Below, piece after piece: positions 1-25,504 of a stretch of DNA of 44,317 nucleotides (positions are counted from its first letter, which is position 1; each line of letters starts with the position of its first letter). The notes under the pieces were generated by a model. The model saw only the letters and a list, made by a program, of their open reading frames with translations. It was not told where the DNA came from and made no database searches. Made by a program: the position numbers and the translations under genes. Source of the DNA: Klebsiella phage vB_Kpn_004_Koku; sequence record PV625053.1; one strand, written 5' to 3'.

Positions 1-1
1 C

Positions 2-6044: not shown

Positions 6045-6748
6045 TGGCAATAATCGGCTCTGCCGCTGCCTCCCTCGGTAGCATGTTCGGAGGTAGTGCC
6101 GCCGCTGGCGGTGCTGCTGCTGCCGGAGGTAGTGGCATCCTTGGCTCTGCTATGGGCTGGCTGGGTGGTTCCACGGCTGGCTTCTCTAACTCTGGTCTGC
6201 TGTCTATGGGTGGCTCTTTGCTTAGTAGTCTGACAAGTTTCTTGTCTGGTGGAAAAGAGGCGGAGGCGCTACGCAAGCAGCAGCAGGAACAATGGAAGCA
6301 GCAAATGATCAACACCCGCGAGCAGTACCGCCAATTGGGTGACTTGGAACGTCAGGCTAACAAGGAGTTTCACCAAGACATTATCCAGAACCAAGTGTCT
6401 TTGCTACAGCAGCAGGCACAGGTTGAGCTAATGGCTGGTGCCTCTGGTACTGGAGGTGCTTCCATCTCTTCCTTGCTCGGAGATTTATCCGGGCAGGCAG
6501 GCAGGAACCAATCCCAGCTTATTGATAACTTTGAGAATCAGCAGCAGAGTTTCATCAATCAAGCTAAAGCAATCCAGACAGGTGGACAGATGCAGCAACG
6601 TAGCTTTGAGAAGCCGTCTGCGTTTAGTTCCCTGCTATCTGGTGTCGGTAGCGCTGCCACCTCATACCTATCTGGTGCTAAGACCGGGAAGGCATTGAGC
6701 ACAGCGTGGAAAGAATCAAGAACCTATTCCTCTGGAGTAGGACGATAA
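6044..6748 (+). CDS. internal virion protein A (gp14-like), Gly/Ala/Ser-rich
   Basis: 234 aa, glycine-rich N-terminal half, Gln-rich coiled C-half; ATG overlaps upstream stop (TAATGG); synteny with T7 core genes 13-16. Confidence 0.7.
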   Translation: MAIIGSAAASLGSMFGGSAAAGGAAAAGGSGILGSAMGWLGGSTAGFSNSGLLSMGGSLLSSLTSFLSGGKEAEALRKQQQEQWKQQMINTREQYRQLGDLERQANKEFHQDIIQNQVSLLQQQAQVELMAGASGTGGASISSLLGDLSGQAGRNQSQLIDNFENQQQSFINQAKAIQTGGQMQQRSFEKPSAFSSLLSGVGSAATSYLSGAKTGKALSTAWKESRTYSSGVGR

Positions 6749-6757
6749 GGAGGGAAC

Positions 6758-9703: not shown

Positions 9704-9715
9704 TGTCATACTCAA

Positions 9716-9746
9716 GGGTTGTCCAACACGTTGGACAGCCTTTTAT
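9716..9746 (+). terminator. terminator-like hairpin built on palindrome copy
   Basis: GGGTTGTCCAAC-AC-GTTGGACAGCC then TTTTAT. Confidence 0.55.
9720..9737. repeat. palindrome copy TGTCCAACACGTTGGACA
   Basis: member of 9-copy family GTCCAAC-NN-GTTGGAC; intergenic. Confidence 0.9.
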
Positions 9747-9771
9747 GAATGGCATTAACTAAGGAGGTAAC

Positions 9772-12700: not shown

Positions 12701-13566
12701 TGCAGGGTGGTTCTGAGAAAATCGTCGCTCGTTCAATCAATAAGCGCCTCAAGGAGCACCTGTCCGGTGGACGTAAGCTGCCGCAGCGTGACTTGGATGA
12801 GGTGGGTCTTGACGAGGCAACCATGAAGCGGCTACAGCGCCACTTTGATGAGAACCCGTCTTACGCAGACTATAACGGCGAGAAAGTTCGCATGATGAAC
12901 TTCGACGCTATGGAGCCAGATCTTCGGGAAACTGTAGGTGTGGCGGTGCGCCGTATGTCAGGTCGTCTTATCCAGCGTAACTTCATCGGGGATGAGGGTA
13001 TCTGGATGAACAAATGGTGGGGCAAAGCATTGACTCAATTCAAATCATTCTCCATTGTCTCTATTGAGAAGCAGCTAATTCACGATTTACGGGGTGATAA
13101 GATTCAGGCCGCTCAGATTCTGGCTTGGTCTTCCTTGTTAGGCTTCGCATCCTACGCTACTCAGATGCAGATGCAGGCAATCGGTCGTGCAGATCGAGAC
13201 AAGTTCCTACGTGAGAAATTCGATACCCAAAACATGGCTATGGGTGTGTTCAACAAACTGCCGCAGGTTGCAGGCTTCGGTCTGGCTGGCGATGCATTGG
13301 CGACTCTCGGTCTTATGCCGGATGCGCTTATGCAGGCTCCGGGTCGTATGGGCTTCCAGCAGCAAGGCTTTGGTGAACTCGTAGCAGGTGCGGGTGTCAT
13401 TGGTGATGCCGTGGACTTCTCCAAGGCATTGGTTAAGTACGCCAATGGCGACGATGATGTATCGACTCGACAAATCGTTGACAAGATGCGCCGTCTGGTG
13501 CCACTGGCTAACACGATTGGTATTGGTCAAATGACCAAGGCCAGCGTAGACTTATTGGAGGACTGA
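9772..13566 (+). CDS. internal virion protein C (gp16-like, large ejection protein)
   Basis: 1264 aa ORF with AAGGAGG SD; syntenic with T7 gp16 immediately before the tail fibre/adaptor gene. Confidence 0.8.
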   Translation: MAELPSQSWVGVAQRRLPPTFSQVAEAERKLEAQREQDKVMTTALESEWALYGGQRALERATTEFAPQEGYEVPQSTVEELSRIHGYEIAQEIVQGVQSPAELQFRMSNAQADKDRAEILARNGFTGFAAQLAAGVLDPVGWAASVVAAPVAGAVKIGRMGRVLKTGLLAAGENAALEAVLAQGDYQRNIDDVLTAAGFGMVMGGTIGAATRQRVRGVETDTPRATVDDLDTVIRGADEFDQSASRAVMEAMEYDAYMAARNFEPLKAREVDFDMAIYQHTEGLRKQANVRMTAKEKGQLKASIRQAEDELRVMQESRTAAKAEHAAKKGAARSKAEALDTKVELQAIARRFDAPIADATKRLDELNAKLAQVENVATSKAELKRFSSLSREEQIKELGLEVPSRKVDMHSAVREAVAAIRAERTKTPTELHAEAVAAREAEAKAPDDSLSAARVEGSEIQGEQFDLSDKMEDLMDDLAREAYQSDVRPVSTFGLGSVSSVILNSKNPVFRGLGLRLLENAQGGAYQGKTASILSNVYGNLIRTAERNRYNDGFSQFIKDNNLRAIDYLNPAVTRDFNNQIYTAIVKGIPDDTPKGVKLAAEGMADKLKKALEIRKQAGEAGFEDVKAARDYMPVIYDGIKVTEAVNRMGSSEAVIALLSKGYQTGKYKLGKKSADALAKVQYIRASDSTLSSRVSFDRVVSQQQQVQLIEDLKKAGVPDSIIDNFIEGTELQEMAESVSNRAKASMGINTQAEYGGMKVQDLLNTNVGELVENYGKEAAGGAALAAMGFPTRQSVLNAIDAAERAGRNMAGSDAKAIKQLRAEADMLRDSVRMLYGNTIDADPNAGIVRGTRRVREVTGLLRLGQMGFAQIPEMARAITKMGLGTVLKSVPATKFLRSRAGREGGTAQGRLLEPELREMEELVGYIGEDNWLTGWNVRHDEFGETADNLSRLSAVIDNGLAMGSHINTWLSGFKAVQGGSEKIVARSINKRLKEHLSGGRKLPQRDLDEVGLDEATMKRLQRHFDENPSYADYNGEKVRMMNFDAMEPDLRETVGVAVRRMSGRLIQRNFIGDEGIWMNKWWGKALTQFKSFSIVSIEKQLIHDLRGDKIQAAQILAWSSLLGFASYATQMQMQAIGRADRDKFLREKFDTQNMAMGVFNKLPQVAGFGLAGDALATLGLMPDALMQAPGRMGFQQQGFGELVAGAGVIGDAVDFSKALVKYANGDDDVSTRQIVDKMRRLVPLANTIGIGQMTKASVDLLED

Positions 13567-14585
13567 TGAGCTATACCTTTACCGAGAGGACAGCAGACGG
13601 TTCGCAGACCACTTTCTCTTTCAGCTTTGCTGGGGCAGACAAGGGTTACATTCGAGCCTCTGATATCTACGTTGAAGTCGGTGATGGTAGGACTTGGCAG
13701 AGTGCCACTGGATGGCGCCTGTCAGGCACAAACCAGATCACATTCAACGTACCACCTTCTCGCGGTACAGTAGTAAGGATTCGGCGTATTGTAGGGAAGG
13801 ATCAGCCGTATGCTAACTTCGACCGCAATGTTATCTTGGATATGAAATCCTTGAATAACTCTTTTATCCAGCAACTTGAGTTAACTCAGGAGATGCTAGA
13901 TGGTTTCTTGCCAGATAGTTTCTACTTCAAGCAAGATATCAACGCGGGCTGGCATAACATCTACCACCTAATGCCTGGCACAGAAGATCACCATGCTGTG
14001 AACAAGGCGCAGTTTGATTCAGCAAATAGCAACCTGCAAACGCAGATTGATGAGAATGATGCCAAGCAGACGGCATGGAACAAGCGTCAGGATGAGCAGA
14101 TTGTTGGTATTATTAAGTCGTTTGACTCCAACATCTCTCACAGGACAGCACCTTGGACGTATGAGGCAGTGGGCGGTGAGACTAAAGTATCACCTCCGTT
14201 CTTCTTCCACTCCGCACTAGTGTGGCGAGATGGTGTCTTCCAAGACGAATTAGCAGGTGCATTCGAGATCGTTAATAACGAAATCCTACTGGCACAACCT
14301 GCATTGCGCAAAGGTGAGCGTGTCTCTGTACTGGTTGGTTCCCGCATCGCAGTGCCGGAGGTAGGTAACGTGCTTCGCATGTCTTACCGCATCACCGAAG
14401 GTACGACTGTGGTCAACCTTGGAACTACCGTAGAGGGTGTTGAGGTGTACCTTGATGGTCTTATCCAAGATGAAGATGCCTACACTCTTAACGCCGACCA
14501 TCGAACCCTTACCTTCACGGAGCCTTTACCGGAGTGTCGGATGATGGTTAAGGCGGTCTTTGATAACAGAACTCGCTTAGAGTAA
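13566..14585 (+). CDS. tailspike adaptor protein (T7 gp17 N-terminal domain-like)
   Basis: 339 aa; N-terminus MSYTFTERTADGSQTTFSFSFAGADKGYIRASDIYVEV.. is the conserved tail-attachment domain of T7-group fibre proteins; no receptor-binding C-terminal part, as in SP6/K1-5 adaptors. Confidence 0.8.
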   Translation: MSYTFTERTADGSQTTFSFSFAGADKGYIRASDIYVEVGDGRTWQSATGWRLSGTNQITFNVPPSRGTVVRIRRIVGKDQPYANFDRNVILDMKSLNNSFIQQLELTQEMLDGFLPDSFYFKQDINAGWHNIYHLMPGTEDHHAVNKAQFDSANSNLQTQIDENDAKQTAWNKRQDEQIVGIIKSFDSNISHRTAPWTYEAVGGETKVSPPFFFHSALVWRDGVFQDELAGAFEIVNNEILLAQPALRKGERVSVLVGSRIAVPEVGNVLRMSYRITEGTTVVNLGTTVEGVEVYLDGLIQDEDAYTLNADHRTLTFTEPLPECRMMVKAVFDNRTRLE

Positions 14586-14594
14586 GGAGGAAGC

Positions 14595-14786
14595 ATGGTA
14601 AACTCAGATGTTATCAACGATACGCTGAAGTGGGTTCCGGGTGCCATAGTGACGAGCACGACCTTCTTAGGTATTAGTTGGGAGAACTGGGTTTACATAT
14701 TAACCGCTATCTACACTATGTTGCAGATTGGCGATTGGGTATGGAACCGAGTTACCAAATGGAGGGAGAAGCGTGGCAGTAAATAA
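14595..14786 (+). CDS. holin (T7 gp17.5-like, class II)
   Basis: 63 aa, hydrophobic core ..ISWENWVYILTAIYTMLQIGDWVW.. closely parallels T7 gp17.5 ..LNEWFYVAAIAYTVVQIG..; same syntenic slot between fibre/adaptor and terminase genes. Confidence 0.75.
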   Translation: MVNSDVINDTLKWVPGAIVTSTTFLGISWENWVYILTAIYTMLQIGDWVWNRVTKWREKRGSK

Positions 14787-15078
14787 CCGACATGCGGCTA
14801 GTGAAGATGATTTAGGTATCCTTCACAATGCTATTACCAAGATGTTCAACAAGAAGGCACAGGCGATCCTTGATGCTATTGAGGACGACCCTGATGCTGC
14901 CATTGGCCTTGTTTCAGGCAAAGATGTAGGTGCGATGTGTAAGTGGGTGCTGGATAACGGCATCATCGCTACACCTGCCGCACAGCAGGAAGAGAGCAAG
15001 CTGTCTAAACGACTGGCTGCACTCAAGGCTGCATCGCAAGGCAAGGTCATTAACTTTACTGACGTTAAGGAGGCTTAA
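14773..15078 (+). CDS. terminase small subunit (gp18-like); start uncertain
   Basis: ORF-track start 14728 is TTG inside the holin gene; GTG at 14773 lies 6 nt after GGAGGGAG and gives ~101 aa, similar in size and character to T7 gp18. Confidence 0.5.
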   Translation: MAVNNRHAASEDDLGILHNAITKMFNKKAQAILDAIEDDPDAAIGLVSGKDVGAMCKWVLDNGIIATPAAQQEESKLSKRLAALKAASQGKVINFTDVKEA

Positions 15079-16976
15079 TGGCAAAGGCAAGGGAGTCCCA
15101 AGCGGAAGCCCTTGCCCGTTGGGAAATGCTGCGAGAACTACAGCAGGCATTCCCCTATACGGTGCAGGGCTTACTGTCGTTCGCTCAGGTGGTAATCAAT
15201 ACACTAATCACTGGCAACCCCGACCTGAACCGAGTACAAGCCGATATCCTCAAGTTCCTGTTCTCAGGAAACAAGTATCGGATGGTAGAAGCGCAGCGTG
15301 GTCAGGCTAAGACTACCATCGCTGCAATCTATGCGGTGTTCCGTATCATTCACGAACCGCACAAACGCATCATGATCGTATCACAGACAGCCAAGCGAGC
15401 CGAGGAAATCGCAGGGTGGGTGATTAAGATCTTCCGTGGATTGGACTTCCTTGAGTTCATGCTTCCTGATATCTACGCAGGTGACAAGGCTTCAATCAAA
15501 GGCTTCGAGATCCACTATACCTTACGTGGAAGTGACAAGTCTCCGTCTGTCGCTTGCTACTCTATCGAAGCAGGTATGCAGGGTGCGCGTGCAGATATCA
15601 TTCTGGCGGACGACGTTGAGTCGTTGCAGAATAGCCGTACCGCCGCAGGCCGTGCATTGCTGGAGGACTTGACCAAAGAGTTCGAATCCATTAACCAGTT
15701 TGGTGATATCATCTACCTAGGGACGCCGCAGAGCGTTAACTCCATCTACAACAACCTCCCGGCGCGTGGCTACCAGATTCGTATCTGGCCCGGTCGCTAT
15801 CCAACGCTGGAGCAAGAGGCTTGCTATGGGGACTTCTTGGCACCGATGATCCGCCAAGACATGCTTGATAACCCGAACCTTCGATCCGGTTACGGCATCG
15901 ACGGAACTCAAGGGGCACCAACCTGCCCGGAGATGTACGACGATGAGAAGTTGATTGAGAAGGAGATCTCGCAGGGTACGGCTAAGTTCCAGCTACAGTT
16001 CATGCTGAACACTCGCCTGATGGATGCAGACCGCTACCCATTACGCCTGAACAACCTGATCATGATGAGCTTTGGCACCGATGTAGTCCCGGAGATGCCG
16101 ACTTGGAGCAACGATTCGATGAACCTTATCGGCGATGCACCACGCTTCGGTAACAAGCCTACGGACTACCTGTACCGCCCTGTGGCCCGCCCGTATGAGT
16201 GGCGACCGATTCAACGCCGTGTCATGTATATTGACCCGGCTGGTGGCGGTAAGAACGGTGACGAAACGGGCGTAGCTATCGTCTTCCTGCTAGGGACATT
16301 CATCTACGTCTATAAGTGCTTCGGTGTGCCGGGCGGGTACTCGGATAGCGCGCTCAGTCGCATTGTGCGCGAAGCAAAGGCCGCAGAGGTCAAAGAGGTC
16401 TTCATAGAGAAGAACTTCGGTCACGGTGCGTTTGAGGCGGTAATTAAGCCATATTTCGAAAGAGAGTGGCCTGCCGAGTTGAAAGAGGATTATGCGCACG
16501 GACAGAAGGAAGTGCGTATCATCGAGACACTGGAGCCTCTATTCTCTGCGCACCGCATCATCTTCAACGCGGAGATGATTAAGCAGGACATAGACAGCAT
16601 CCAGCACTACCCGCTCGAAACACGTATGAGCTACAGCTTGTTCGGTCAAATCTCGAACATTACTCTGGAGAAAGGATGCCTGCGGCATGACGACCGCTTA
16701 GACGCCCTGTACGGCGCTATACGGCAATTAACTTCTCAGATAGACTATGACGAGGTTAACCGGATAAATCGGCTCAGGGCGCAGGAGATGCGCGATTATC
16801 TGGACATGATGCACGACCCTCGGAGACGACGGGAGTTCTTTACCGGGCAAGACCACGGCTATCGCCCTCGGACGAACACCAGCGATGCCCGTATCCAGTC
16901 CGTGTGGGGTAAATCGGTGCGGCCTAAAACTCGTTCTCGGAATACACTTTCTTCAAGAATTTCAAGGACTTGGTAA
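15078..16976 (+). CDS. terminase large subunit (DNA maturase B, gp19-like)
   Basis: 632 aa, AAGGAGG SD, ATG overlaps upstream stop; P-loop-like ..RGQAKTT.. ; syntenic. Confidence 0.85.
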   Translation: MAKARESQAEALARWEMLRELQQAFPYTVQGLLSFAQVVINTLITGNPDLNRVQADILKFLFSGNKYRMVEAQRGQAKTTIAAIYAVFRIIHEPHKRIMIVSQTAKRAEEIAGWVIKIFRGLDFLEFMLPDIYAGDKASIKGFEIHYTLRGSDKSPSVACYSIEAGMQGARADIILADDVESLQNSRTAAGRALLEDLTKEFESINQFGDIIYLGTPQSVNSIYNNLPARGYQIRIWPGRYPTLEQEACYGDFLAPMIRQDMLDNPNLRSGYGIDGTQGAPTCPEMYDDEKLIEKEISQGTAKFQLQFMLNTRLMDADRYPLRLNNLIMMSFGTDVVPEMPTWSNDSMNLIGDAPRFGNKPTDYLYRPVARPYEWRPIQRRVMYIDPAGGGKNGDETGVAIVFLLGTFIYVYKCFGVPGGYSDSALSRIVREAKAAEVKEVFIEKNFGHGAFEAVIKPYFEREWPAELKEDYAHGQKEVRIIETLEPLFSAHRIIFNAEMIKQDIDSIQHYPLETRMSYSLFGQISNITLEKGCLRHDDRLDALYGAIRQLTSQIDYDEVNRINRLRAQEMRDYLDMMHDPRRRREFFTGQDHGYRPRTNTSDARIQSVWGKSVRPKTRSRNTLSSRISRTW

Positions 16977-16995
16977 TTAGGGGACACTATAGAAG
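16975..16995 (+). promoter_or_regulatory. SP6-type promoter variant after terminase gene
   Basis: AATTAGGGGACACTATAGAAG; followed by AT-rich repeat element. Confidence 0.75.
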
Positions 16996-17063
16996 GAAGA
17001 CCAAGGTAATAAAGGATATTATGGGTAATATAGGATTACCTAGGTTATATAGGTACGCCTTAT
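16996..17063 (+). repeat. AT-rich iteron-like element A downstream of promoter
   Basis: GAAGGAAGACCAAGGTAATAAAGG then ATAGGTA/TATAGG repeats; first 36 nt identical to element at 35334. Confidence 0.7.
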
Positions 17064-17065
17064 TA

Positions 17066-17098
17066 TGAGGGTACTCCAGTACCCTCTTCTTACCTATT
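17066..17098 (+). terminator. hairpin/attenuator downstream of promoter 16975
   Basis: GAGGGTAC-TCCA-GTACCCTC perfect stem followed by TTCTTACCTATTTC. Confidence 0.45.
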
Positions 17099-17128
17099 TC
17101 ACTGTTTACTATAAACAAGGAGTACAGA

Positions 17129-17410
17129 ATGGCTAATAATTATAGTGATCAACCACTAACAGGTCGGTATGATCGAAAACAGGAGACACCTGTAAGTGAA
17201 GCGTTAATGCTTCCTGTTGTTACAGAGGAGTCTATTACGAAGAAAGCCAATGTCATCAATGATGCAACCAAATCTGGCAAACAGAAAGCAGCAATGGTGT
17301 GTCGTCCTGTAGGTGGCACTCTTGAGATTGCCATTGCTACGGGTAGCAAAGAGGACGCAGACTGGTTGTCTGTTAAAATGGATGCCGTTGGTTTTGTTAC
17401 ACCAGTTTAA
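17129..17410 (+). CDS. hypothetical protein, paralog 1 of a triplicated family
   Basis: 93 aa; shares core ..SGKQKAAMV....G.LEIAIATGSKEDADW..VTPV with the next two ORFs; AT-rich codon usage. Confidence 0.7.
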   Translation: MANNYSDQPLTGRYDRKQETPVSEALMLPVVTEESITKKANVINDATKSGKQKAAMVCRPVGGTLEIAIATGSKEDADWLSVKMDAVGFVTPV

Positions 17411-17426
17411 AAGAGGAGAAGAGAAT

Positions 17427-17711
17427 ATGTCTAAATATGGTGAGGTAGGTACTACTACTGGTCAGGCTTTTCGTGTAAAAGCAGTACAAACTATTGCAAC
17501 TGCAATCCCTATGCCTGTTGTGGCAGAAGATGACCTTAAAAAGAAAGACCACCCGATTAATATTGAACATCTCTCTGGTAAGCAGAAAGGTGCAATGGTG
17601 GTTGTAGACAAAGGTAACGGCCTCTATATTGCTATTGCACGTGGAAGCAAACCAACTGACATTTGGGATGTAACCACTATGGAACCTGTACCTGTCACAC
17701 CGGGAGTTTAA
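17427..17711 (+). CDS. hypothetical protein, paralog 2
   Basis: 94 aa from ATG 17427 preceded by AAGAGGAGAAG SD; core ..SGKQKGAMVVVDKGNGLYIAIARGSKPTDIW..VTPGV. Confidence 0.7.
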   Translation: MSKYGEVGTTTGQAFRVKAVQTIATAIPMPVVAEDDLKKKDHPINIEHLSGKQKGAMVVVDKGNGLYIAIARGSKPTDIWDVTTMEPVPVTPGV

Positions 17712-17712
17712 T

Positions 17713-18408
17713 ATGCTGGGAGTCACAGGACAACGCAATAAGAATGTAGCAACCAAGGTAGTAGCTGATTTAGCTACTGCTGCTACTGTAGAAGAGTTAC
17801 GAGATCCATATAGCCCTATTAACCGTGCTGAACTTTCTGGCAAACACGAAGGGTCTGCTGTTATTGTTAAGAAAGAAGATGGTAACTATTCCATCTTTGT
17901 GGCAACAGGAAGCAAACCTACTGATGTGTGGAAAGAACTATCACCGACTGTACCTGAGCAGGATTTTCCTACTGAGTACATTGACATGGTTGATGTCCTT
18001 GTACACCCTGATAGTGAATCCAAAGTGAAGGTCATACCAGGAACAAAGACGGTACTTGTCCAAACACCAATGTTTGATGTAGCAGGTGAACTACTGTACC
18101 GTAACAGCCTATCAGCTAAGATCGGGCTGAATTGGGTCATTGGCGCTGCTGCGGCAGATACCATTAAGTTTAAAGTAAATGGTATTCTAGAGTCAGCAGA
18201 AGAGTATTATTCTTTAGATACAGTACAAGCGTTTATCTACACTAATGGCAGGGGTGCAGGTTTCCCTGAGGTTATGGTAGACCCTAAAGATGCAAGAACT
18301 AATGAATTTGGTATCATGGTAAACACTATGCCACCTAATGCATCTCAGTTTGGATTAAACATCACCCTAGAGTGGACTTCACCTACGAGGATCATGTATG
18401 CTAAATAA
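17713..18408 (+). CDS. hypothetical protein, paralog 3 with ~130-aa C-terminal extension
   Basis: 231 aa; N-terminal part ..SGKHEGSAVIVKKEDGNYSIFVATGSKPTDVW.. repeats the family core; stop overlaps endolysin start. Confidence 0.7.
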   Translation: MLGVTGQRNKNVATKVVADLATAATVEELRDPYSPINRAELSGKHEGSAVIVKKEDGNYSIFVATGSKPTDVWKELSPTVPEQDFPTEYIDMVDVLVHPDSESKVKVIPGTKTVLVQTPMFDVAGELLYRNSLSAKIGLNWVIGAAAADTIKFKVNGILESAEEYYSLDTVQAFIYTNGRGAGFPEVMVDPKDARTNEFGIMVNTMPPNASQFGLNITLEWTSPTRIMYAK

Positions 18409-18748
18409 ATACTTCAAGCGTAAAGAGTTCGCTTGCCGTTGCGGTTGCGGCACCTCAACCGTAGATGCTGAACTGTTACAGGTTGTCACCGATGTGCGCG
18501 AACACTTCGGTATGCCTGTGGTTGTGAACTCAGGGCATCGCTGTGCCAAGCACAATGCCAACGTGGGCGGTGCCAAGAACTCCGTCCACATGACGGGTAA
18601 GGCTGCGGATATCCGCGTCAAAGGTCTGTCCCCATCTCAGGTGGCGTTCTACCTTGAGCAGAAATATCCCGACAAGTACGGCATCGGTCGCTATGCTGAC
18701 TTCACCCACATCGACGTTCGTGAAGGGAAGGCTCGCTGGAATGGTTGA
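18398..18748 (+). CDS. endolysin, peptidase M15 (L-alanyl-D-glutamate / D-Ala-D-Ala carboxypeptidase type)
   Basis: 116 aa ..SGHRCAKHNANVGGAKNSVHMTGKAADI..FTHIDVR.. zinc-ligand H/D/H pattern of M15 peptidase endolysins. Confidence 0.8.
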   Translation: MLNKYFKRKEFACRCGCGTSTVDAELLQVVTDVREHFGMPVVVNSGHRCAKHNANVGGAKNSVHMTGKAADIRVKGLSPSQVAFYLEQKYPDKYGIGRYADFTHIDVREGKARWNG

Positions 18749-18860
18749 GTGCATAGCTTGGTGCGAGAAGATGGTAGCGCAAGCTGCCGGGTCAGGTAAC
18801 TATACCGACTGGCAGAACTACACTACCCTGTTAAACCAATGGAAGGGGAGAGCATCTTGA
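18741..18860 (+). CDS. small ORF (39 aa), lysis-cassette filler, uncertain
   Basis: ATG overlaps endolysin stop (AATGGTTGA); MVECIAWCEKMVAQAAGSGNYTDWQNYTTLLNQWKGRAS; no strong SD of its own. Confidence 0.3.
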   Translation: MVECIAWCEKMVAQAAGSGNYTDWQNYTTLLNQWKGRAS

Positions 18861-19006
18861 TGAAGCTCCTGAAAAGCAAGAAGGTGGTGGCCGCACTTGT
18901 CGGCCTAGTGGTGGCACTTGTCTCCGTTGGCCTCGGCGTAGACCTTGGTGCTGGCACTGGCGATGCAGTGACAAGTGTTATCTGCCAAGCAGTAAGCTGT
19001 GAGTAA
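18860..19006 (+). CDS. small membrane protein (48 aa), lysis-associated
   Basis: ATG overlaps upstream stop (TGATG), AAGGGGAG SD 8 nt upstream; MKLLKSKKVVAALVGLVVALVSVGLGV.. basic N-terminus followed by one transmembrane segment. Confidence 0.55.
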   Translation: MKLLKSKKVVAALVGLVVALVSVGLGVDLGAGTGDAVTSVICQAVSCE

Positions 19007-19184
19007 ACTTCTGGAAATCCTAGCAGGTCTTCTCGGCCTGCTCTTGGACGCAAAGAAGAAGCATGAGCAGAAGGAGGCGCAAAGTGAAGCGAATCATGTT
19101 AGCGACAATCCTGCTGATTGGTTCGCTGATCACTTCCGGGTGCAGTCAGGTGTCACCAAGTCAGAACAGGGTGATGCCGACTAA
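18999..19184 (+). CDS. candidate i-spanin-like protein (61 aa), GTG start, uncertain
   Basis: GTG-initiated ORF with N-terminal hydrophobic helix LLEILAGLLGLLL then charged region; the lipoprotein gene overlaps it in the +1 frame, the overlapped Rz/Rz1 architecture. Confidence 0.35.
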   Translation: MSKLLEILAGLLGLLLDAKKKHEQKEAQSEANHVSDNPADWFADHFRVQSGVTKSEQGDAD

Positions 19185-19293
19185 GCCGACGCTGACGGCA
19201 GTGTACGAAGTGGACGATAAGGTCTGCTTTAGCAAGCCCGATGCTACACAACTTGGGCTGTACATTTTATCGCTAGAACGCGGTTACAAATAA
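19084..19293 (+). CDS. o-spanin-like outer-membrane lipoprotein (Rz1-like)
   Basis: GTG 19084 is 6 nt after GGAGG (alternative ATG 19096); signal peptide MKRIMLATILLIGSLITSGC with lipobox, Pro-rich mature part with a second Cys. Confidence 0.6.
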   Translation: MKRIMLATILLIGSLITSGCSQVSPSQNRVMPTKPTLTAVYEVDDKVCFSKPDATQLGLYILSLERGYK

Positions 19294-19322
19294 TACATAG
19301 CTTTATGTATCAATCACCTACG

Positions 19323-19343
19323 ATTTAGGTGACACTATAGAAG
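19323..19343 (+). promoter_or_regulatory. SP6-type promoter (tailspike operon)
   Basis: ATTTAGGTGACACTATAGAAG exact. Confidence 0.9.
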
Positions 19344-19417
19344 AGATAAAGTGGCGATCGTTTGGTCGCCCTTTACTCAAGGTGCTCATGGTGGGCGCTT
19401 TAAGTAAAGGAGGAAAC

Positions 19418-21301
19418 ATGGCACTTACTAGGTTAAATTCAGATCTGGTGTCGATTGATACAGGTGGTACATTGAAGGACACCTTGTCCTTCGTAACGCC
19501 AGAAATGATGCGTGTAAATGGTAGTCGATACCTTCAAGGTGTTACTCCAGATGCGCAACCTTTCGTACAGGCTGCGGTGGATTATGGTAAACAGCACAAC
19601 CTTCCAGTTAAACTGTTGACGCTGTACACATGCACCACTGCACCTCATCGCTTTGAACTTCCAAGGGATGACGGCACAGTCTATCCAAAGTGGATAACAG
19701 ACGGGACGGATGTAAACCTTGCACCAGAAGCAGCGCAGTGTATGCCTGCATGTATTCGCTTATATAACGATAGCCGTGTCTTTGGAGAGAACATGCAGAC
19801 TTGCGGCATTCGTGGTTCTTGGTCTAAAGCCAATGGCCCGTATGATAACACTGCGCCTATTGGTGTGTTCATTAGCGGAAACGGTGGCAAAGATGATTAT
19901 GTACGTTATCATCTTGAAAACCTAACCATATCAAACTTCTTCATTGGACGACTCTGTGAAGGTACTAGTGCATTCTCTACCGAAGATAACATCAAGGTCA
20001 TGGGTTGCGGTATAACAGGTGCATTCCAAGGTGAGGACGCCGTGCGTAGGGGCTTCATGCTGATGTGGTACAACATTGCTGGCGATGTGAGAGGTGGTTG
20101 GTGGCTAACGCGAAACCATGCGTATGCAACTACTTTCATGCCACCTTATCCCGGTAAGGACATTCACCGTGCAGGTTGGAACGACTCTAGCTATACAGAG
20201 AAGTATCATTATTACGGAGATACGTCCTTAAACTGGACACATCCATGCTACAATGCTGTCGATAGTTTCTTTGACCGCTTCTTCTTTAAGAGTGCAAACT
20301 CTGCTAAGACGTCAGCAGGTGGTCGTTTATCTAACAGCACACAACCCGGTGTGTGGCCCGTTGGTGTCTACCGTGGTGTTGCAGGTCGCGCACTTACTAT
20401 CTACTCCCGTTACGGGCGTGAGATCATGAGTTGCAATATCGGTGAGGCTAAGATTATGTGGTCTCCGCGTACACCATTCTTCTACACTTCACAGCCGTCA
20501 GGTCTTGTTGGTAACAGTAAGATTGGACATTGTATGCTTGAGCGTGTTGGCATCATCGAGTTCAAGAAGGGGGATACAGCAGGTAACAGGTTTAACGTGG
20601 ATAATGTTGACCCGTATGACAGTGCGCAGGCATTCTTCCCTGCAATGGCTACACGTGGTAACGTCTTCTGTGAAGATATCATACGAAGTGGCGCAGTGCA
20701 GAAGTCGGTAGGTAATGAGTTGCAAGGGGCGTTCTCAGGTAGTATGCAGATTCAATGCCACCGTCGTGCCGATGATGCAGCGAACTACTCTATGCTTCGA
20801 CTGCAAGAGTGGAAGAACTCACTTACGGATCGTTATGTATTCAACTCTAAGTCTTGCTTATTGCAGCCTGCACAGTTTGATTCCTCTGGTGCTCTATTTA
20901 AGTATTTCACCAAGGAGTTTACGCCGACAATCAAAATAGGTGGACAGGTCATCACTGTGACAGAGGCAAAAGGTATCTGCCATCGCTTTGGCGATGTGGT
21001 GCGCATACGCTTGCGCTTCCGTAACTCTAACCTGAGCATCAAGATTGGTGAGGGTGGTGGTGCGATTGAGGTTGGCGGCTTGCCGTTCCAAGCAGCACCA
21101 GTGCAGTGGGGTGGGACTTTCGGGTCTGTAACACTTGGATCACAGGCGGCAGGGTTTACCTTAATACCTCAGGTTGTGGCAGGTTCGACCACTGTGCGAT
21201 TCCTCAAGGACTCTTCTGGTGCGCAATTCCAGCACCCGTCTGGTGACTTCGACTTCACGCTTCATGCTGACTTCGAGTATACCACATCTTTCAATGCTTA
21301 A
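19418..21301 (+). CDS. tailspike protein 1 (beta-helix polysaccharide depolymerase-type)
   Basis: 627 aa from ATG 19418 (AAGGAGG SD); the ORF-track N-terminal extension is upstream leader. Begins MALTRLN like the second spike (shared adaptor-docking N-terminus); Gly/Asn-rich repetitive body; promoter directly upstream and terminator downstream. Confidence 0.8.
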   Translation: MALTRLNSDLVSIDTGGTLKDTLSFVTPEMMRVNGSRYLQGVTPDAQPFVQAAVDYGKQHNLPVKLLTLYTCTTAPHRFELPRDDGTVYPKWITDGTDVNLAPEAAQCMPACIRLYNDSRVFGENMQTCGIRGSWSKANGPYDNTAPIGVFISGNGGKDDYVRYHLENLTISNFFIGRLCEGTSAFSTEDNIKVMGCGITGAFQGEDAVRRGFMLMWYNIAGDVRGGWWLTRNHAYATTFMPPYPGKDIHRAGWNDSSYTEKYHYYGDTSLNWTHPCYNAVDSFFDRFFFKSANSAKTSAGGRLSNSTQPGVWPVGVYRGVAGRALTIYSRYGREIMSCNIGEAKIMWSPRTPFFYTSQPSGLVGNSKIGHCMLERVGIIEFKKGDTAGNRFNVDNVDPYDSAQAFFPAMATRGNVFCEDIIRSGAVQKSVGNELQGAFSGSMQIQCHRRADDAANYSMLRLQEWKNSLTDRYVFNSKSCLLQPAQFDSSGALFKYFTKEFTPTIKIGGQVITVTEAKGICHRFGDVVRIRLRFRNSNLSIKIGEGGGAIEVGGLPFQAAPVQWGGTFGSVTLGSQAAGFTLIPQVVAGSTTVRFLKDSSGAQFQHPSGDFDFTLHADFEYTTSFNA

Positions 21302-21307
21302 CACTAG

Positions 21308-21345
21308 GTGCGGCGTAAGCCGCACTTTACGCAACTTTCTTTCTT
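21308..21345 (+). terminator. terminator between the two tailspike genes
   Basis: GTGCGGC-GTAA-GCCGCAC followed by TTTACGCAACTTTCTTTCTTC. Confidence 0.7.
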
Positions 21346-21387
21346 CATAGGCACTCATGGTGGGTGTCTATAAACAAAGGAGGTTAC

Positions 21388-23373
21388 ATGGCTCTAACCA
21401 AAGCTACAACAGTTAATGCATATCAGGGGCGCCCACCCGTTGTAATCACGGATAGCGTCGAAGATAAGGTAATGGATGGACGTGCTGGTCTTCGTAAGCA
21501 CTTTGGTGCTGTTGGGGACGGGCAACATGATGATACAGACGCCTTTGAAAAATGGATGGATTGCCTAACAGATGCAACATATAAGCGTTTAGGGGCATTT
21601 TCGGACGAACACCCATATATGCTACAGAAAGGGCCACAGCTCATGTTAGAAGATGGGGCTTTCGTGTATGCTGGCAAAGGTTTGAACATCCCGACCAATC
21701 ATGCCTTTGTTCTAAACATAATTGGACAAAGTTCCTTATCTACAAAGATTATCATACCAGAAGATGTGTACTTCTTGGATTTAGATAACAACCCTGTGTT
21801 TTCTTATATGTCAGATATTACGTTCCATGGTGGACTAGGTGCTGTACGCATGAAGTCTAAGTCACGCAATGCAACAAGTATGCACATATTTGAGCGTCTA
21901 CGTATGTCTAGGTACAAGCAGTGTGCCTTTAGTAACAACTCAATAGATATGCCTTACGTTAAAATCAGAGACTCAGTGTTTATGGGAGATGTCTCCAGAG
22001 AGACAATTGGGCTGTGCTTATCTGGCCTGTCTGCTGGTAGTGATATCACAGGGAATCAGTTTACTGATAACAGGTATAATCTCAAATTAGCTGTTGCAGA
22101 CAATGGTGTAGAACGTAATGGCCCACCAACGCCTCTAAACATAGTAGGTAACGATTTCTATCGGACAGGTAATCGCTCAGGTGCATCTTATGATATTTGG
22201 ATTGAACCAGGTAAAACAGCTACAAACTCAGGACGTGGACTTGTTTTGCAACGTAATAAGTTTGGGCAGGAGAACCTAAAGAGTCCAGATGCACACATTC
22301 TCATTGCAGATAGTGGGACAGGGCAAGGTGGTGATTTAAATGGGGACAGAATGCATGTAGAGACAAAATCTTCTGGATTTGTGTCAGGCATTCTTTCAGA
22401 GGGTAACAATGTTAATTCTATCAACGGGAGCTACACTGCACCCTATATCCGCAGCTTCACACCTAACTTTGGTAACAATAAGATCCATGATATTTATGAC
22501 AATGGAATGCCGTCTCGTATAGTAGAGTTTGCAGGTGGTATTACGCAAAGTGAAGTTGTTAATATATCTCGCACTAATATGCTTGAGATTGATCAGGCTC
22601 TTTCCTTACAGAAAGGGGATGTACCTAATTTATTGTCTAACCTAGATGGTGTATTCCGTGTAAGGGATGATTTAGGCCTGTTGGCAGGACACCCTCAAGT
22701 GCATGATACACCAACCGGTTCTCAGATGTCAGATTTTCTGCATGTATATAAAGGCCCAACATCTAGTATTGCTGTTGCAGAAGCAACGCGCGTAGCTATT
22801 GATAACTCCTATGGAGGTAAAAATGAGGCAGCAGAGTTCACTATGACAACTGAAGCTGGACGTGCAGTTGCAACGGTGACAGGGCTTGTTGCTGGTGATA
22901 CTTTCTGGTTAGATTTTGAGGTAAAGAGATCTGCTGACAATGCGGCCCCTCGTGTGCTCTTCGAGGTACTAGATTCAAGTGCGAGTACCTTACTTCTTAG
23001 AAGGACTATACTGTTAGATGCGAAGCAGAGATGGCAGAAAGTTGTGCTACCTTTTGTGCCAAACAGTTCTGGTAGTATCCTTGTTCGCTTCAAGGCGAAA
23101 GGTTGGACACCTTCTAATAAGAAGTTTCAAGTAGGAAACCTTAATGTATACCGCAACCCTACACCAGTTAATACTGGACATAATGGAGGTTTATCTTCCT
23201 CTTGGAGTTCACAGCACATCCTTATTGGGCCTTACCACTTATGGGTAGATGCAACTGGCGCATTGCGTATCAAAGATGGCGCACCTACGTCTGTTAACGA
23301 TGGTGTCATCGTTGGCAGTCAGTCAGAAAGTGTTAGCCAACAAGTATCGGGTGATGGTATACAAAACCATTGA
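21388..23373 (+). CDS. tailspike protein 2 (pectate-lyase-fold depolymerase-type)
   Basis: 661 aa from ATG 21388 (AAGGAGG SD); begins MALTKATT; contains ..FGAVGDGQHDDTDAF.. pectate_lyase_3-type motif typical of phage depolymerases; markedly AT-rich relative to genome core. Confidence 0.8.
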   Translation: MALTKATTVNAYQGRPPVVITDSVEDKVMDGRAGLRKHFGAVGDGQHDDTDAFEKWMDCLTDATYKRLGAFSDEHPYMLQKGPQLMLEDGAFVYAGKGLNIPTNHAFVLNIIGQSSLSTKIIIPEDVYFLDLDNNPVFSYMSDITFHGGLGAVRMKSKSRNATSMHIFERLRMSRYKQCAFSNNSIDMPYVKIRDSVFMGDVSRETIGLCLSGLSAGSDITGNQFTDNRYNLKLAVADNGVERNGPPTPLNIVGNDFYRTGNRSGASYDIWIEPGKTATNSGRGLVLQRNKFGQENLKSPDAHILIADSGTGQGGDLNGDRMHVETKSSGFVSGILSEGNNVNSINGSYTAPYIRSFTPNFGNNKIHDIYDNGMPSRIVEFAGGITQSEVVNISRTNMLEIDQALSLQKGDVPNLLSNLDGVFRVRDDLGLLAGHPQVHDTPTGSQMSDFLHVYKGPTSSIAVAEATRVAIDNSYGGKNEAAEFTMTTEAGRAVATVTGLVAGDTFWLDFEVKRSADNAAPRVLFEVLDSSASTLLLRRTILLDAKQRWQKVVLPFVPNSSGSILVRFKAKGWTPSNKKFQVGNLNVYRNPTPVNTGHNGGLSSSWSSQHILIGPYHLWVDATGALRIKDGAPTSVNDGVIVGSQSESVSQQVSGDGIQNH

Positions 23374-23529
23374 TAGTGTCTAAAAGTAGATAGGCTGTAC
23401 GGCAGAATACGCAGGAACTTATTGCTTCATATCGTAACGTGAAGAAATAATTTGCATCGTCTGCGTAGCAGTTAGTATCTTAGTGTAACAAAGGGCTGAC
23501 CTAGGTTGGCCCTTCATGAAGGAGGCAAC

Positions 23530-23685
23530 ATGATTTGGATTCACACGTATGGTGTAGGGCCGTTCAAGAAGAAGGTACTCAGGAAGATTCATGAGTCCGA
23601 GGAATCAGCCTTAGCCAGCCAGAAGGTACTTGGTGGGACTGTCCAGTGCTACATGAAGAAGCCACAAGGCTTTGACTTATTGTAA
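23530..23685 (+). CDS. small hypothetical protein (51 aa) at genome right end
   Basis: ATG 6 nt after GAAGGAGG; MIWIHTYGVGPFKKKVLRKIHESEESALASQKVLGGTVQCYMKKPQGFDLL; below ORF-track size cutoff. Confidence 0.45.
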   Translation: MIWIHTYGVGPFKKKVLRKIHESEESALASQKVLGGTVQCYMKKPQGFDLL

Positions 23686-23744
23686 CCAAAGGTGGTCACA
23701 AAGTAACCAAAGTCAAAATTTTGATATAGGCGTGTGTCAGCTCT

Positions 23745-23935
23745 CTCGCCCGTCGCCCGTCCGGATTGTCCCCATAGGGGTGCCTAGGGCATTTCTAGGG
23801 CCGGAGGGCGGGACTAGGGCGTTTCTTAGTGAGGGCCAAAGGGTTGCCGGAGGCTGGGCGGGAGGGCGCGATAGGGACACGCAGAGGACGCTTGACAGCG
23901 TGGGAGGGCGTGGGCTATCTGTTCCTTTTTGTGCC
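23745..23935. repeat. genome-terminus region: CCCCATAGGGG palindrome, CTAGGG and GGGAGGGCG repeats (putative terminal repeat / concatemer junction)
   Basis: CCCCATAGGGG parallels the CCCCCATAGGGGG in T7 terminal repeat; GGGAGGGCG occurs three times with a fourth near-copy; non-coding. Confidence 0.5.
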
Positions 23936-23937
23936 TA

Positions 23938-24110
23938 GCCTTGCTTAGTGTTACCTTATGCACTTCCTTATCGTGTACCTTATGCAAGTCTTAGTGACTA
24001 ACTTAGTGCATACCTTAGTAGCTACCTTAGTGATTACCTTAGTCACAACCTATCAATCCTTAGTGTTACCTTAGTGAATTGCATAGCTAAAGCTATAAGA
24101 TGCTATTAGG
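23938..24110. repeat. array of short CCTTAGTG / ACCTTAGT-type direct repeats
   Basis: about 9 tandemly spaced copies of (A)CCTTAGTG-like units, positional analog of T7 left-end CCTAAAG repeats between terminal repeat and first early promoter. Confidence 0.6.
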
Positions 24111-24201
24111 TCGCGGTCGGTAGACCGCTAAAAGATGTAATGAGTAGGAAGATGCAAGAGATGAACACCAGAAACCATCTTGTCTGTCCTAATGTTTGCC
24201 T

Positions 24202-24219
24202 TGTCTAACACGTTGGACA
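24202..24219. repeat. degenerate palindrome copy TGTCTAACACGTTGGACA
   Basis: one mismatch; 11 bp upstream of -35 of host promoter P1. Confidence 0.7.
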
Positions 24220-24230
24220 ACAATTAAGTG

Positions 24231-24259
24231 TTGACAGGTTATCTTGGTGTATGCATAAT
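24231..24259 (+). promoter_or_regulatory. early sigma70 promoter P1
   Basis: TTGACA-17 bp-CATAAT. Confidence 0.75.
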
Positions 24260-24348
24260 GCATCACGTAGGCGGTGCTGAGGCACCTAGTAGCCAGCTAG
24301 TAAGGCATACGAAGAGACTAGCGCCTACCTTAGTGAAGTAACTTAGTG

Positions 24349-24377
24349 TTGACAAGGTAGATAACCTGAGATACATT
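24349..24377 (+). promoter_or_regulatory. early sigma70 promoter P2
   Basis: TTGACA-17 bp-TACATT. Confidence 0.75.
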
Positions 24378-24393
24378 AAGAAGCAAGAAGTAC

Positions 24394-24410
24394 CGCTCTT
24401 TAACAATTTG
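24394..24410 (+). promoter_or_regulatory. rrn-type boxA element in P2 leader
   Basis: CCGCTCTTTAACAATTT: GCTCTTTAACAA identical to E. coli rrn boxA consensus, ~+12 from predicted start. Confidence 0.55.
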
Positions 24411-24462
24411 CTTAGTGTAACCTATGTAAGCCGTGGTTAATCTATCATTAATGAGGTATACC

Positions 24463-24621
24463 ATGCATAACTTAGATGATGCTTATGATGCTTACGTGGA
24501 GTCAGTCTGTGAATATGAGATTCCTATGAGTAAACGCCAGTTCCTTAAAATGATTGAGGAGTGGCAAGAGAGGCCAAATAAGGTATCACCTGAACTCAAG
24601 GAGGGCATAGAATGCAACTGA
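24463..24621 (+). CDS. early hypothetical protein (52 aa)
   Basis: ATG 24463 preceded by GAGGT at -5; first gene downstream of host promoter P2; stop overlaps next ATG. Confidence 0.55.
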   Translation: MHNLDDAYDAYVESVCEYEIPMSKRQFLKMIEEWQERPNKVSPELKEGIECN

Positions 24622-24785
24622 ATCTACGAGAAGCAAGCACTGTCTTTACTATGCTGTGCTACATGGCACAAAACGAGGCTATGACCGACGACGAACTAGC
24701 GTTATATCATCGCTTTCGTAAGGAAGGATGGGACGATCTAGTTAATAAAGATCGTGATATTCTTAAAGAAATGATTGAGGGTTAA
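24612..24785 (+). CDS. early hypothetical protein (57 aa)
   Basis: ATG overlaps upstream stop (ATGCAACTGA), AAGGAGGG SD 7 nt upstream; MQLNLREASTVFTMLCYMAQNEAMTDDELALYHRFRKEGWDDLVNKDRDILKEMIEG. Confidence 0.6.
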   Translation: MQLNLREASTVFTMLCYMAQNEAMTDDELALYHRFRKEGWDDLVNKDRDILKEMIEG

Positions 24786-24788
24786 CAA

Positions 24789-24992
24789 ATGTTTAAGTAC
24801 GAAGTATTTATCAGTGATAACCGCGAAGCCGCTGTGATTGCAGAGATGTTCAACGGTCACATTACGGCGTACAACGTAGGAGATGATGAGGAAGCCTTTG
24901 TTGTTACCTTCACTAGCAAATTATCGCATAAGAAGGTAGTAGATAAGGTGATGCCTTTCTCCTTCGAAGAAGTAATTTCCAACAAAATCTAA
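24789..24992 (+). CDS. early hypothetical protein (67 aa)
   Basis: ORF immediately after previous stop, GAGGG 7 nt upstream; ends just before host promoter P3. Confidence 0.55.
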   Translation: MFKYEVFISDNREAAVIAEMFNGHITAYNVGDDEEAFVVTFTSKLSHKKVVDKVMPFSFEEVISNKI

Positions 24993-25001
24993 AATTAGTT
25001 G

Positions 25002-25030
25002 TTGACAACCACGGCTTACAAGGTTACATT
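25002..25030 (+). promoter_or_regulatory. early sigma70 promoter P3 (upstream of ocr)
   Basis: TTGACA-17 bp-TACATT; same architecture as P2. Confidence 0.75.
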
Positions 25031-25048
25031 AAGCACCAACAAGGCAAC

Positions 25049-25066
25049 ACCGCTCTTTAACAATCT
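25049..25066 (+). promoter_or_regulatory. rrn-type boxA element in P3 leader
   Basis: ACCGCTCTTTAACAATCT; second copy, same spacing from promoter. Confidence 0.55.
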
Positions 25067-25159
25067 GGAATGCACTTAGTCGGATAGGTTAGATAAGCTA
25101 TCTTGGCACTAGCTAGGGTAGCTTAGTGTAACCTAACTAACTAAATGAGGATTAAAATT

Positions 25160-25504
25160 ATGTATAATATGACTTATTCCAATGTTTACAACCACGCTCG
25201 CAGCATGATTGAAGAGGCAATTCGTTATGACGATATCCGGGACACGGATAAGTTATATGATGCACTTCATGAGGCTTGTGATAATGCAGTTCCTCACTAT
25301 TACAATGATGTTTTCTCTGTAATGGCGAGCGACGGCATTGACCTTGAATTTGAAGATTCCGGTTTAATGCCTGAAACTAAGGATGTTATCCGCATACTGC
25401 AAGCTCGCATTTACGAACAACTCACGATCGACCTTTACGGTGTCGCTGAGGACTTGATGAACGACTATATCGCTGAGATGGAAGAAGAAGAGGACGAGGA
25501 ATAA
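25160..25504 (+). CDS. ocr: Ocr, DNA-mimic anti-restriction protein (T7 gp0.3 homolog)
   Basis: ..[96 protein letters not shown] aligns along its length with T7 Ocr as recalled (identical stretches such as [50 protein letters not shown]). Confidence 0.9.

Follow-up and report, generated by a model that had tools for sequence, protein, structure and literature searches.

Dual tailspikes in SP6-like podophages

The combination of a tail adaptor protein with two separately encoded tailspikes has been known since the work on phages K1-5 and SP6 and is documented in the Klebsiella phage Kp7, in whose virions both fibers were detected by mass spectrometry (bioRxiv 10.1101/2024.05.19.594906). In K1-5, the adaptor is gp37 and the spikes are gp46 (K5 lyase) and gp47 (K1 endosialidase); the spikes of SP6 are likewise gp46 and gp47. 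The K1-5 adaptor is bound in its middle by the heptapeptide of gp46 (MAKLTKP) and in its C-terminal part by the undecapeptide of gp47 (MIQRLGSSLVK), as given in PMC6872550 (citing Leiman 2007). Here, we analyzed a stretch of 44,317 nucleotides (nt) from Klebsiella phage vB_Kpn_004_Koku (record PV625053.1; the whole stretch is called the window below), and in particular positions 19323 to 23373, which hold two tailspike genes and the folded leaders in front of them. Like K1-5 and SP6, the window has a separate adaptor of ∼320 to 340 amino acids (aa) with a T7 gp17-like N terminus; two consecutive anchorless spikes lie at the right end behind one phage promoter (PMC6872550; PMC6966330); and the spacer between the spikes (83 to 86 nt across these phages) is free of promoters, contains the same two hairpins and separates spikes of two docking-peptide classes. 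The region is very probably the right-end host-recognition cassette of an SP6/K1-5-type podophage, with two depolymerase spikes, conserved folded leaders and exchange of spike modules mediated by those leaders.

Layout of the cassette

Whole-genome comparison showed that the window is collinear with Klebsiella phage cp4 and corresponds to a circularly permuted genome of a Klebsiella-type (SP6-like) member of the Molineuxvirinae. Its backbone (positions 1 to 19300) is 92 to 95% identical in nucleotides to Klebsiella phages cp4, K1-ULIP33, Kpp-61, IME184, and VR702 and ∼78% identical to Salmonella phages of the SP6 group. A scan of the window for SP6-type promoters returned 11 promoter-like sites, all on the + strand and three of them perfect, where none was expected by chance. 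The site at 19323 to 19343 (+ strand; ATTTAGGTGACACTATAGAAG; 21 of 21 positions matched, with a probable +1 at G19340) precedes the first spike gene, and the same scan found no phage promoter between the two spikes. Spike 1 (627 aa, beginning MALTR) extends on the + strand from the ATG at 19418 to a stop codon ending at 21301, and spike 2 (661 aa, beginning MALTK) from the ATG at 21388 to a stop ending at 23373, in agreement with the coordinates and lengths given in an earlier, sequence-only reading of the window. The spacer between the genes is 86 nt long, and AAGGAGG, the Shine-Dalgarno (SD) sequence, stands 4 nt upstream of each ATG. An in-frame ATG at 19388, which would extend spike 1 to an open reading frame (ORF) of 637 aa, was rejected as the start: no SD precedes it, it falls in the tip of a hairpin, its counterpart upstream of spike 2 is in another reading frame, and MALT is the N terminus of homologues.

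The presumed docking platform for both spikes is the 339-aa product of the gene at 13566 to 14585 (+ strand). The sequence-only reading had named this gene as the adaptor, and the assignment holds: the protein matches Pfam PF03906 (T7 tail fiber N-terminal domain; E = 1.8 × 10−10), PHROG 2710, and, over its full length, the tail adaptor protein of PDB entry 7y22 (E = 4 × 10−120), and its residues 1 to 331 are 48 to 51% identical to the adaptors of SP6 and of K1-5-like contigs. Pfam gave no match to PF03906 (the gp17-like anchor) on spike 1 or spike 2. Judged from cp4, the cassette adjoins the right end of the genome; the physical genome ends were placed at ∼23779 to 23894, where the right and left ends of cp4 overlap, an overlap that appears to mark a collapsed direct terminal repeat. 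The window thus combines an adaptor that lacks a receptor-binding domain with two adjacent anchorless spikes at the right end, a promoter and a promoter-less spacer of ∼85 nt, which is the SP6/K1-5-type dual-tailspike arrangement. In the model that we favor, the single SP6-type late promoter at 19323 would give rise to one bicistronic mRNA, from which two trimeric tailspikes, both of them anchorless polysaccharide depolymerases, would be made. Short peptides at their N termini would link both spikes to the adaptor, which is encoded separately. They would occupy two different adaptor sites, so that the virion would display two specificities and could have a dual host range, possibly with new capsule or O-antigen targets, as the sequence-only reading had proposed.

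Folded leaders before both spikes

Each spike gene is preceded by a leader of ∼85 nt, in which a spacer separates a first hairpin (A) from a second, long one (B) and the SD and ATGGC come last; the two leaders are paralogous. They had been called near-identical, which overstates a real similarity: 40 of 56 aligned positions match (19378 to 19432 against 21347 to 21402), with perfect blocks at CTCATGGTGGG, AAAGGAGG, and ACATGGC, and the 13-mer CTCATGGTGGGYG has exact copies only at the two leaders within the window. In leader 1 (this and the following hairpins are on the + strand), hairpin A (19353 to 19370; GGCGATC-GTTT-GGTCGCC) lies at about +14 of the transcript. Hairpin B (19370 to 19410) joins a lower stem, CCTTTACT/AGTAAAGG, to an upper stem with a UCA-UGG-UGG tip, and the initial 4 nt of the SD (AAGGAGG, 19407 to 19413) lie within its 3′ arm. 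In leader 2, hairpin A (21306 to 21327; GGTGCGGC-GTAA-GCCGCACT) starts 5 nt past the spike 1 stop and is followed by UUUACGC; hairpin B (21333 to 21385) is an imperfect stem of ∼23 bp with the same UCA-UGG-UGG tip, at whose base AACUUUCUUU is predicted to pair with AAAGGAGGUU, leaving the SD (21377 to 21383) occluded.

The minimum free energy fold had a z-score of −4.25 for leader 1 and of −6.85 for leader 2 (−38.7 kcal/mol), an overall range of −4 to −7. Among 33 genes, leader 1 had the most negative folding energy between −70 and +20, and in predicted SD accessibility spike 2 ranked lowest (0.14) and spike 1 fifth from the bottom (0.28). Covariation of the hairpins spans SP6, K1-5, and Klebsiella-type phages. 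In aligned inter-spike leaders from 18 phages, 97.2% of cells at 26 consensus pairs were paired, compared with 38 to 53% when partners were slid; nine pairs showed compensatory changes, and the observed score was reached by none of 500 shuffles. Hairpin A contributed compensatory changes at four of its nine pairs and hairpin B at five of its 17 consensus pairs (98% of cells paired). The same two hairpins are present in 17 promoter-proximal leaders (the spike 1 position), with seven compensatory pairs and the upper stem of hairpin B among the covarying parts; in hairpin A of these leaders, for example, pair 17/32 is GC in nine and CG in eight, and pair 20/29 is UG in eight, AU in seven, and GC in two. 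A covariance model built only from the 18 inter-spike leaders recovered the spike 1 leader (44 bits; E = 6 × 10−9), with no other strong match in the window. When IMG/VR was searched with the loose DNA pattern TCATGGTGGN{9,14}AAGGAGG and 80 matching loci were put to the model, most proved to be chance matches, and only SP6-like contigs passed. No Rfam family matched positions 19000 to 24500 on either strand at E values up to 1.

The similarity between leaders could in principle reflect nothing but DNA, either a strong ribosome-binding site with the first codons or homology kept for recombination (or a cruciform cut by the phage resolvase), with no function in RNA. Exchange breakpoints coincide with the leaders, frequent recombination alone would homogenize them, and the SD and ATGGC fall within the perfectly shared blocks. 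We nonetheless consider this explanation unlikely, as stems change by compensation while pairing is kept, the invariant tip lies outside the SD, and the covariance model parts true leaders from ∼70 loose pattern matches in IMG/VR. In addition, G-U pairs (one of them invariant) are frequent on the sense strand and only there, and the covariance score falls from 99 bits on the sense strand to 29 bits on the minus strand, which argues for an RNA structure rather than a DNA cruciform. The sequence-only reading had regarded the leader as crossover homology; that homology exists, but the leader is also a covarying two-hairpin mRNA structure. It had also suggested a comparison of the leader with the 85-bp pre-tailspike region reported for K1E, K5, and SP6. 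By GenBank coordinates, the inter-spike spacer of K1-5 measures 85 nt and that of SP6 83 nt, against 86 nt in the window.

A terminator had also been proposed between the two genes. The stable, GC-rich, 9-bp hairpin A of leader 2 (21306 to 21327) is present there; its loop is of the GNRA type, and UUU and a T-rich stretch come after it. It is kept in all clades, and a consensus scan flags a terminator-like site at 21313 to 21332, which is an overlapping alternative hairpin. If this hairpin terminated the spike 1 transcript efficiently, spike 2 would be weakly expressed or depend on another signal. Such termination appears quite improbable, because only UUU stands before ACGC, because the leader 1 paralogue lies ∼14 nt past the promoter of that leader, where termination would be counterproductive, and because spike 2, which is intact and conserved, has no phage promoter of its own. 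The U-tract is far weaker than the UAUUUUGUUU of the terminator after the capsid gene, and both spike proteins are found in virions of the related phage Kp7 (bioRxiv 10.1101/2024.05.19.594906). Hairpin A is likely an end-protecting stem rather than an efficient terminator.

Late mRNAs of the T7 group carry structured 5′ leaders and RNase III processing hairpins, with stable stem-loops at the 5′ end and between genes. The leaders of the window resemble them as stem-loops on phage-polymerase transcripts, in which a long, imperfect hairpin B of about two helical turns adjoins the ribosome-binding site; they differ in having no sequence or Rfam relation to the T7-group hairpins and in being confined to spike genes, and their cleavage would be a prediction. 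Hairpin B, at 17 to 23 bp with small internal loops, is compatible with an RNase III site in size only. We propose that the leaders work at the mRNA level: hairpin B would occlude the SD partly or fully, would set and insulate spike translation, and/or would be processed (for example, by RNase III), with hairpin A protecting the transcript end. On this model, the leaders would act in post-transcriptional control of spike output through SD occlusion and possibly RNase III processing. They would double as homology arms for cassette exchange, because they are conserved while the coding bodies are not.

Exchange of spike modules between lineages

The segment from 21305 to 23685 (+ strand), comprising leader 2, spike 2 and a small downstream ORF, is 97.3% identical in nucleotides to the Escherichia coli Vectrevirus NIC06P3 (OZ035778), a phage whose backbone is 71 to 80% identical to that of the window, and this shared module begins 4 nt past the spike 1 stop. 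Metagenomic contigs L009 to L013 are 96% identical over 21304 to 23514. The recent acquisition of spike 2 that the sequence-only reading deduced from base composition is supported by this step in identity. Breakpoints against relatives lie at 19413 to 19435, 21303 to 21305, and 23453 to 23519: homology to cp4, ULIP33, and contigs L014 and L034 to L036 ends at 19413 to 19422 and resumes at 23453; phage HY and contigs L027 and L030 keep isolated islands of ∼100 nt with at least 90% identity at leader 2; and L043, a contig with a K1-5-type promoter, shares spike 1 at 93 to 97% nucleotide identity. Every breakpoint seen against relatives falls at the leaders, which had been nominated as crossover points and are indeed the junctions at which cassettes are naturally exchanged. 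In our reading, recent exchange with phages of the K1-5-promoter type (Vectrevirus; ∼45% GC) has involved spike 2 together with leader 2, spike 1, and the low-GC block at 17.2 to 18.4 kb. In NIC06P3, nine of 11 promoter-like sites have a K1-5-type core (TTACTGG/TTACCGG). The NIC06P3 site before spike 1 (4572 to 4597) is instead identical to the SP6/Klebsiella-type promoter of the window (GATTTAGGTGACACTATAGAAGAG), which implies a Klebsiella-type phage as the source of its spike promoter and leader; the site at 27958 is also atypical. Spike exchange may have run in both directions between the lineages.

Base composition was computed for comparison with a by-eye estimate of low 40s for spike 2 against ∼50% for the genome, and the estimate was sound. 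Spike 2 has 43.4% GC and 34.7% GC at third codon positions (GC3) in a genome of 50.3% GC, where genes of at least 150 aa average 50.8 ± 3.3% and 54.0 ± 7.3%, respectively; only 1.8% of all 1,986-nt segments are as GC-poor. Spike 1 is mildly low only (48.3 to 48.4% GC; GC3, 46.4%; 22% of segments are as low), and other stretches as GC-poor as spike 2 or poorer are the genes at 17129 to 18408 and the early region at 24451 to 25504. We attribute the low GC of spike 2 to exchange with Vectrevirus-type phages, relatives whose genomes have 45 to 46% GC. Constraints on spike genes, such as amino acid usage or expression tuning, might instead lower GC with no foreign origin, and in line with this the first-spike genes of NIC06P3 and L009 also have 44 to 45% GC and spike 1 also lies under the genome mean. 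Such constraints make a doubtful explanation of the spike 2 value, however, as the deficit is concentrated at synonymous sites (GC3 of 34.7% against 54%, with the first and second codon positions near normal), the module has a 97.3% identical counterpart in a phage of 46% GC whose backbone is 71 to 80% identical, and the sharp identity step starts exactly at 21305.

Rearranged cassettes were also seen among relatives. In contigs L034 (14357 to 14442) and L036 (14352 to 14437), a single heptapeptide-class spike resembling K2 depolymerases (MALIKATF...) stands directly behind the promoter, and its hybrid leader resembles leader 1 as far as AAAGGAGG and leader 2 from there on (ttac); it looks as though the first spike was deleted by recombination between the two leaders. 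Truncated first-position spikes of 111 to 257 aa that keep a docking N terminus occur in L004 (K1-ULIP33; 4121 to 4459), L014 (at 14378), and L025, L031, and L039 (ORFs of 111 aa), and a truncated gp46 has similarly been described for K1E (PMC6966330). Upstream of the cassette, 17129 to 18408 forms a three-gene low-GC island (42 to 43% GC; GC3, 31 to 33%) whose products share an N-terminal domain of ∼90 aa (PHROG 2725/32357) and, judged by gene order alone, correspond in position to the minor capsid proteins of Kp7. The island is 87 to 95% identical to L043, whose backbone is only 60 to 80% identical, and it matches cp4 poorly; it looks like a second recently exchanged module.

Docking classes of the N termini

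The N terminus of spike 1 (MALTRLNSDLV) resembles the undecapeptide of K1-5 gp47 (xxxxRLxSxLV), and that of spike 2 (MALTKAT) resembles the heptapeptide of gp46 (MA-LTKA). Spikes were sorted into docking classes with regular expressions and by their likeness to short motifs, and ∼40 related loci were tabulated. Behind SP6/K1-5-type leaders, the heptapeptide class occupied the first position in 12 of 12 cases and the undecapeptide class the second position in 12 of 12. Behind Klebsiella-type leaders, seven of 12 first-position spikes were of the undecapeptide class, three were of the heptapeptide class, and two were unclassified KL variants that we read as undecapeptide-like, whereas all seven second-position spikes were of the heptapeptide class (MALTKAT type). 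First-position N termini are exemplified by MALTRLNSDLV in the window and LSVTRLTSSLVRWKSKLANAI in Kp7, as against MIQRLGSSLVKFKSKIAGAI in K1-5. The order in the window (undecapeptide-like, then heptapeptide-like) is the reverse of that in SP6 and K1-5, a reversal suggested by short motifs, and the two spikes should dock at different adaptor sites. In the sequence-only reading, the shared MALT had been taken as the docking determinant. That view does not stand, since MALT falls within a segment that is still alignable with the leader (seven of the 12 first coding nucleotides match) and the N termini belong to two docking classes; the informative docking residues would be those after MALT.

Spike proteins

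Neither spike is similar to SP6 gp46 or gp47, to the K5 lyase or to the K1 endosialidase, as had been surmised, nor are the two similar to each other. Both had been read as depolymerases of the beta-helix type, and comparison agreed in each case. Spike 1 (PHROG 22560; no Pfam family matched) is 64% identical to the tail fiber of phage JY917, and 96% identical to a protein (P0047) of a phage contig with a K1-5-type promoter. Its residues 21 to 612 match the solved KN1 depolymerase (PDB 9m4c/9m4d; E = 1 × 10−87; 32% identity), and its residues 8 to 627 are 60.6% identical to S1-2 of K64-1, the nearest characterized relative. S1-2 is the KN4 depolymerase (PMC11652154), and KN4 corresponds to KL124 (PMC13385381); DepoCatalog places S1-2 and the KN1 depolymerase together in structural “Class 4A” (PMC11652154; PMC13385381). 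Both are homologous to the spike 1 body, but S1-2 (736 aa, from a jumbo Klebsiella phage) and the KN1 depolymerase (residues 1 to 245) carry N-terminal anchor or conserved-peptide modules that spike 1 does not have: the aligned part of the KN1 depolymerase begins at residue 245, so spike 1 is without its anchor. At 60% identity, a capsule specificity shared by spike 1 and S1-2 cannot be assumed.

Spike 2 is 97 to 98% identical in amino acids to the second spike of NIC06P3 and to another protein, P0001. Pfam PF26986 (Cap_depo) is recorded on its homologues. These are spike proteins of phages and prophages found in Klebsiella, Raoultella, and E. coli, where they are joined to a wide variety of N-terminal anchors. 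An AlphaFold2 model (predicted local distance difference test [pLDDT], 85; predicted template modeling score [pTM], 0.82) has 18 disordered N-terminal residues, then a beta-helix, and then a C-terminal beta-sandwich, with short repetitive strands over residues 85 to 430. Top Foldseek matches of the model were the Klebsiella phage depolymerases Depo32, the K2-2 tailspike protein (TSP), and Kp7 gp52, along with CBA120 TSP4 (E ∼ 1 × 10−9); the probability was 1.0 for these and for the Sf6 and HK620 tailspikes at template modeling (TM) scores of only ∼0.3. The C-terminal domain matched carbohydrate-binding modules (CBM) of the CBM4/22 type. We class spike 2 as a beta-helix protein of the Cap_depo family with a CBM-like C-terminal beta-sandwich. 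The pectate-lyase motif that had been reported in spike 2 is present (FGAVGDGQHDDTDAF, residues 39 to 53), and this cap motif (GAxGDGxxDDTxA) is nearly invariant among homologues; it signifies only a PF12708-like beta-helix cap, and the match to PF12708 (Pect-lyase_RHGA_epim) spans residues 37 to 64 only and, at 19.1 bits against a cutoff of 27, misses the gathering threshold. Spike 2 had no PHROG match and no PDB sequence match; no characterized relative was found, and the text of DepoCatalog names no close one. No capsule type for strain NIC06 turned up in the paper text that was searched. A frameshift near the C terminus, raised by tblastn alignments ending at residue 638, was rejected, as P0001 and NIC06P3 align through residue 659.

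Sequences downstream of the cassette

Beyond spike 2 lies a small conserved ORF of 51 aa (23530 to 23685, + strand; PHROG 3955, E = 5 × 10−25), which by gene order holds the position of gene 48 in SP6 and K1-5. It has its own upstream SD, directly 5′ of which is a hairpin, AAGGGCTGACC-TAGG-TTGGCCCTT. The leader model gave a weak match at 23451 to 23535 (18.7 bits; E = 0.011), and homology to cp4 resumes at 23453; this stretch might represent a third, degenerate leader at which the cassette ends on its right side. Right before the inferred genome end, ∼100 nt at 23688 to 23790 are ∼89 to 96% identical in SP6, K1-5, and Klebsiella-type phages while the flanks diverge, and this stretch is probably a packaging or end-replication signal. 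Past the genome end, the low-GC stretch at 24231 to 25030 contains three strong sigma-70-like promoters (TTGACA-17-CATAAT and similar), which fit the early region of a T7-supergroup phage.

Implications and comparison with known systems

Several points weigh against our interpretation. For the phage of the window, expression, processing, assembly and enzymatic activity are all predictions. A large part of the covariation distinguishes only two clades, which leaves few independent compensatory events, and the shuffles take no account of relatedness. Occlusion of the SD is predicted from thermodynamics, and in the second-position leaders of SP6 and K1-5 the GGAGG lies largely outside the conserved stem. 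Docking classes come from motif resemblance and regular expressions, not from structure. Spike genes are GC-poor in all relatives examined, and part of the low GC may thus be a property of the gene class. The direction of transfer is ambiguous, since the GC of spike 2 fits a Vectrevirus source while the spike promoter of NIC06P3 points the opposite way. A broader proposal, which we advance tentatively and with the balance somewhat against it, is that the two-hairpin element of ∼85 nt before every spike of SP6-, K1-5-, and Klebsiella-type Molineuxvirinae is a dedicated mRNA element that acts in cis, is missing from Rfam, and has not been described before. Such an element would set spike output through SD occlusion and/or RNase III whatever the spike body, and would provide homology arms for exchange across genera; the docking-class swap of the Klebsiella-type phages would have arisen by recombination across paralogous leaders.

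What the window adds to the known adaptor and two-spike architecture is a pair of spike alleles that do not occur together in any relative examined, a second spike that is near-identical in an E. coli phage, explicit covariation support for the leader hairpins and, as far as the literature was checked, the reversed docking-class order. The shared spike 2 shows directly that modules for capsule recognition pass between podophages of the Klebsiella and Escherichia types. For the design of phage therapy, the pair unites one depolymerase related to those for KN4/KL124 and KN1 with one that is shared with an E. coli phage, and the breakpoints at the cassette edges and between the spikes offer natural junctions for engineered spike swaps. 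The covarying hairpins also raise a testable question about how spike expression is controlled in SP6-like phages.

Set against described systems, the spike bodies of the window are unrelated to those of K1-5 and SP6 and their docking-class order is reversed; the tip of hairpin B is UCAUGGUGG in both leaders of the window and UUCAYRGGGAG in first-position leaders of SP6 and K1-5. Kp7 (adaptor, gp51, and gp52; PDB 7y22, 7y5s, and 7xyc) and the group of K1-ULIP33, cp4, IME184, and vB_KpnP_HY share the backbone clade, leader sequences and docking order of the window. These phages carry other spike alleles, none has spike 2 of the window, and only spike 2 of HY has the body family of spike 1 (34% identity). 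The second spike of NIC06P3 and of L009 to L013 agrees with that of the window in position, leader 2 and N terminus as well as in its 97 to 98% amino acid identity, but these phages differ in having K1-5-type promoters, 45 to 46% GC, an adaptor only 57% identical and another first-position spike.

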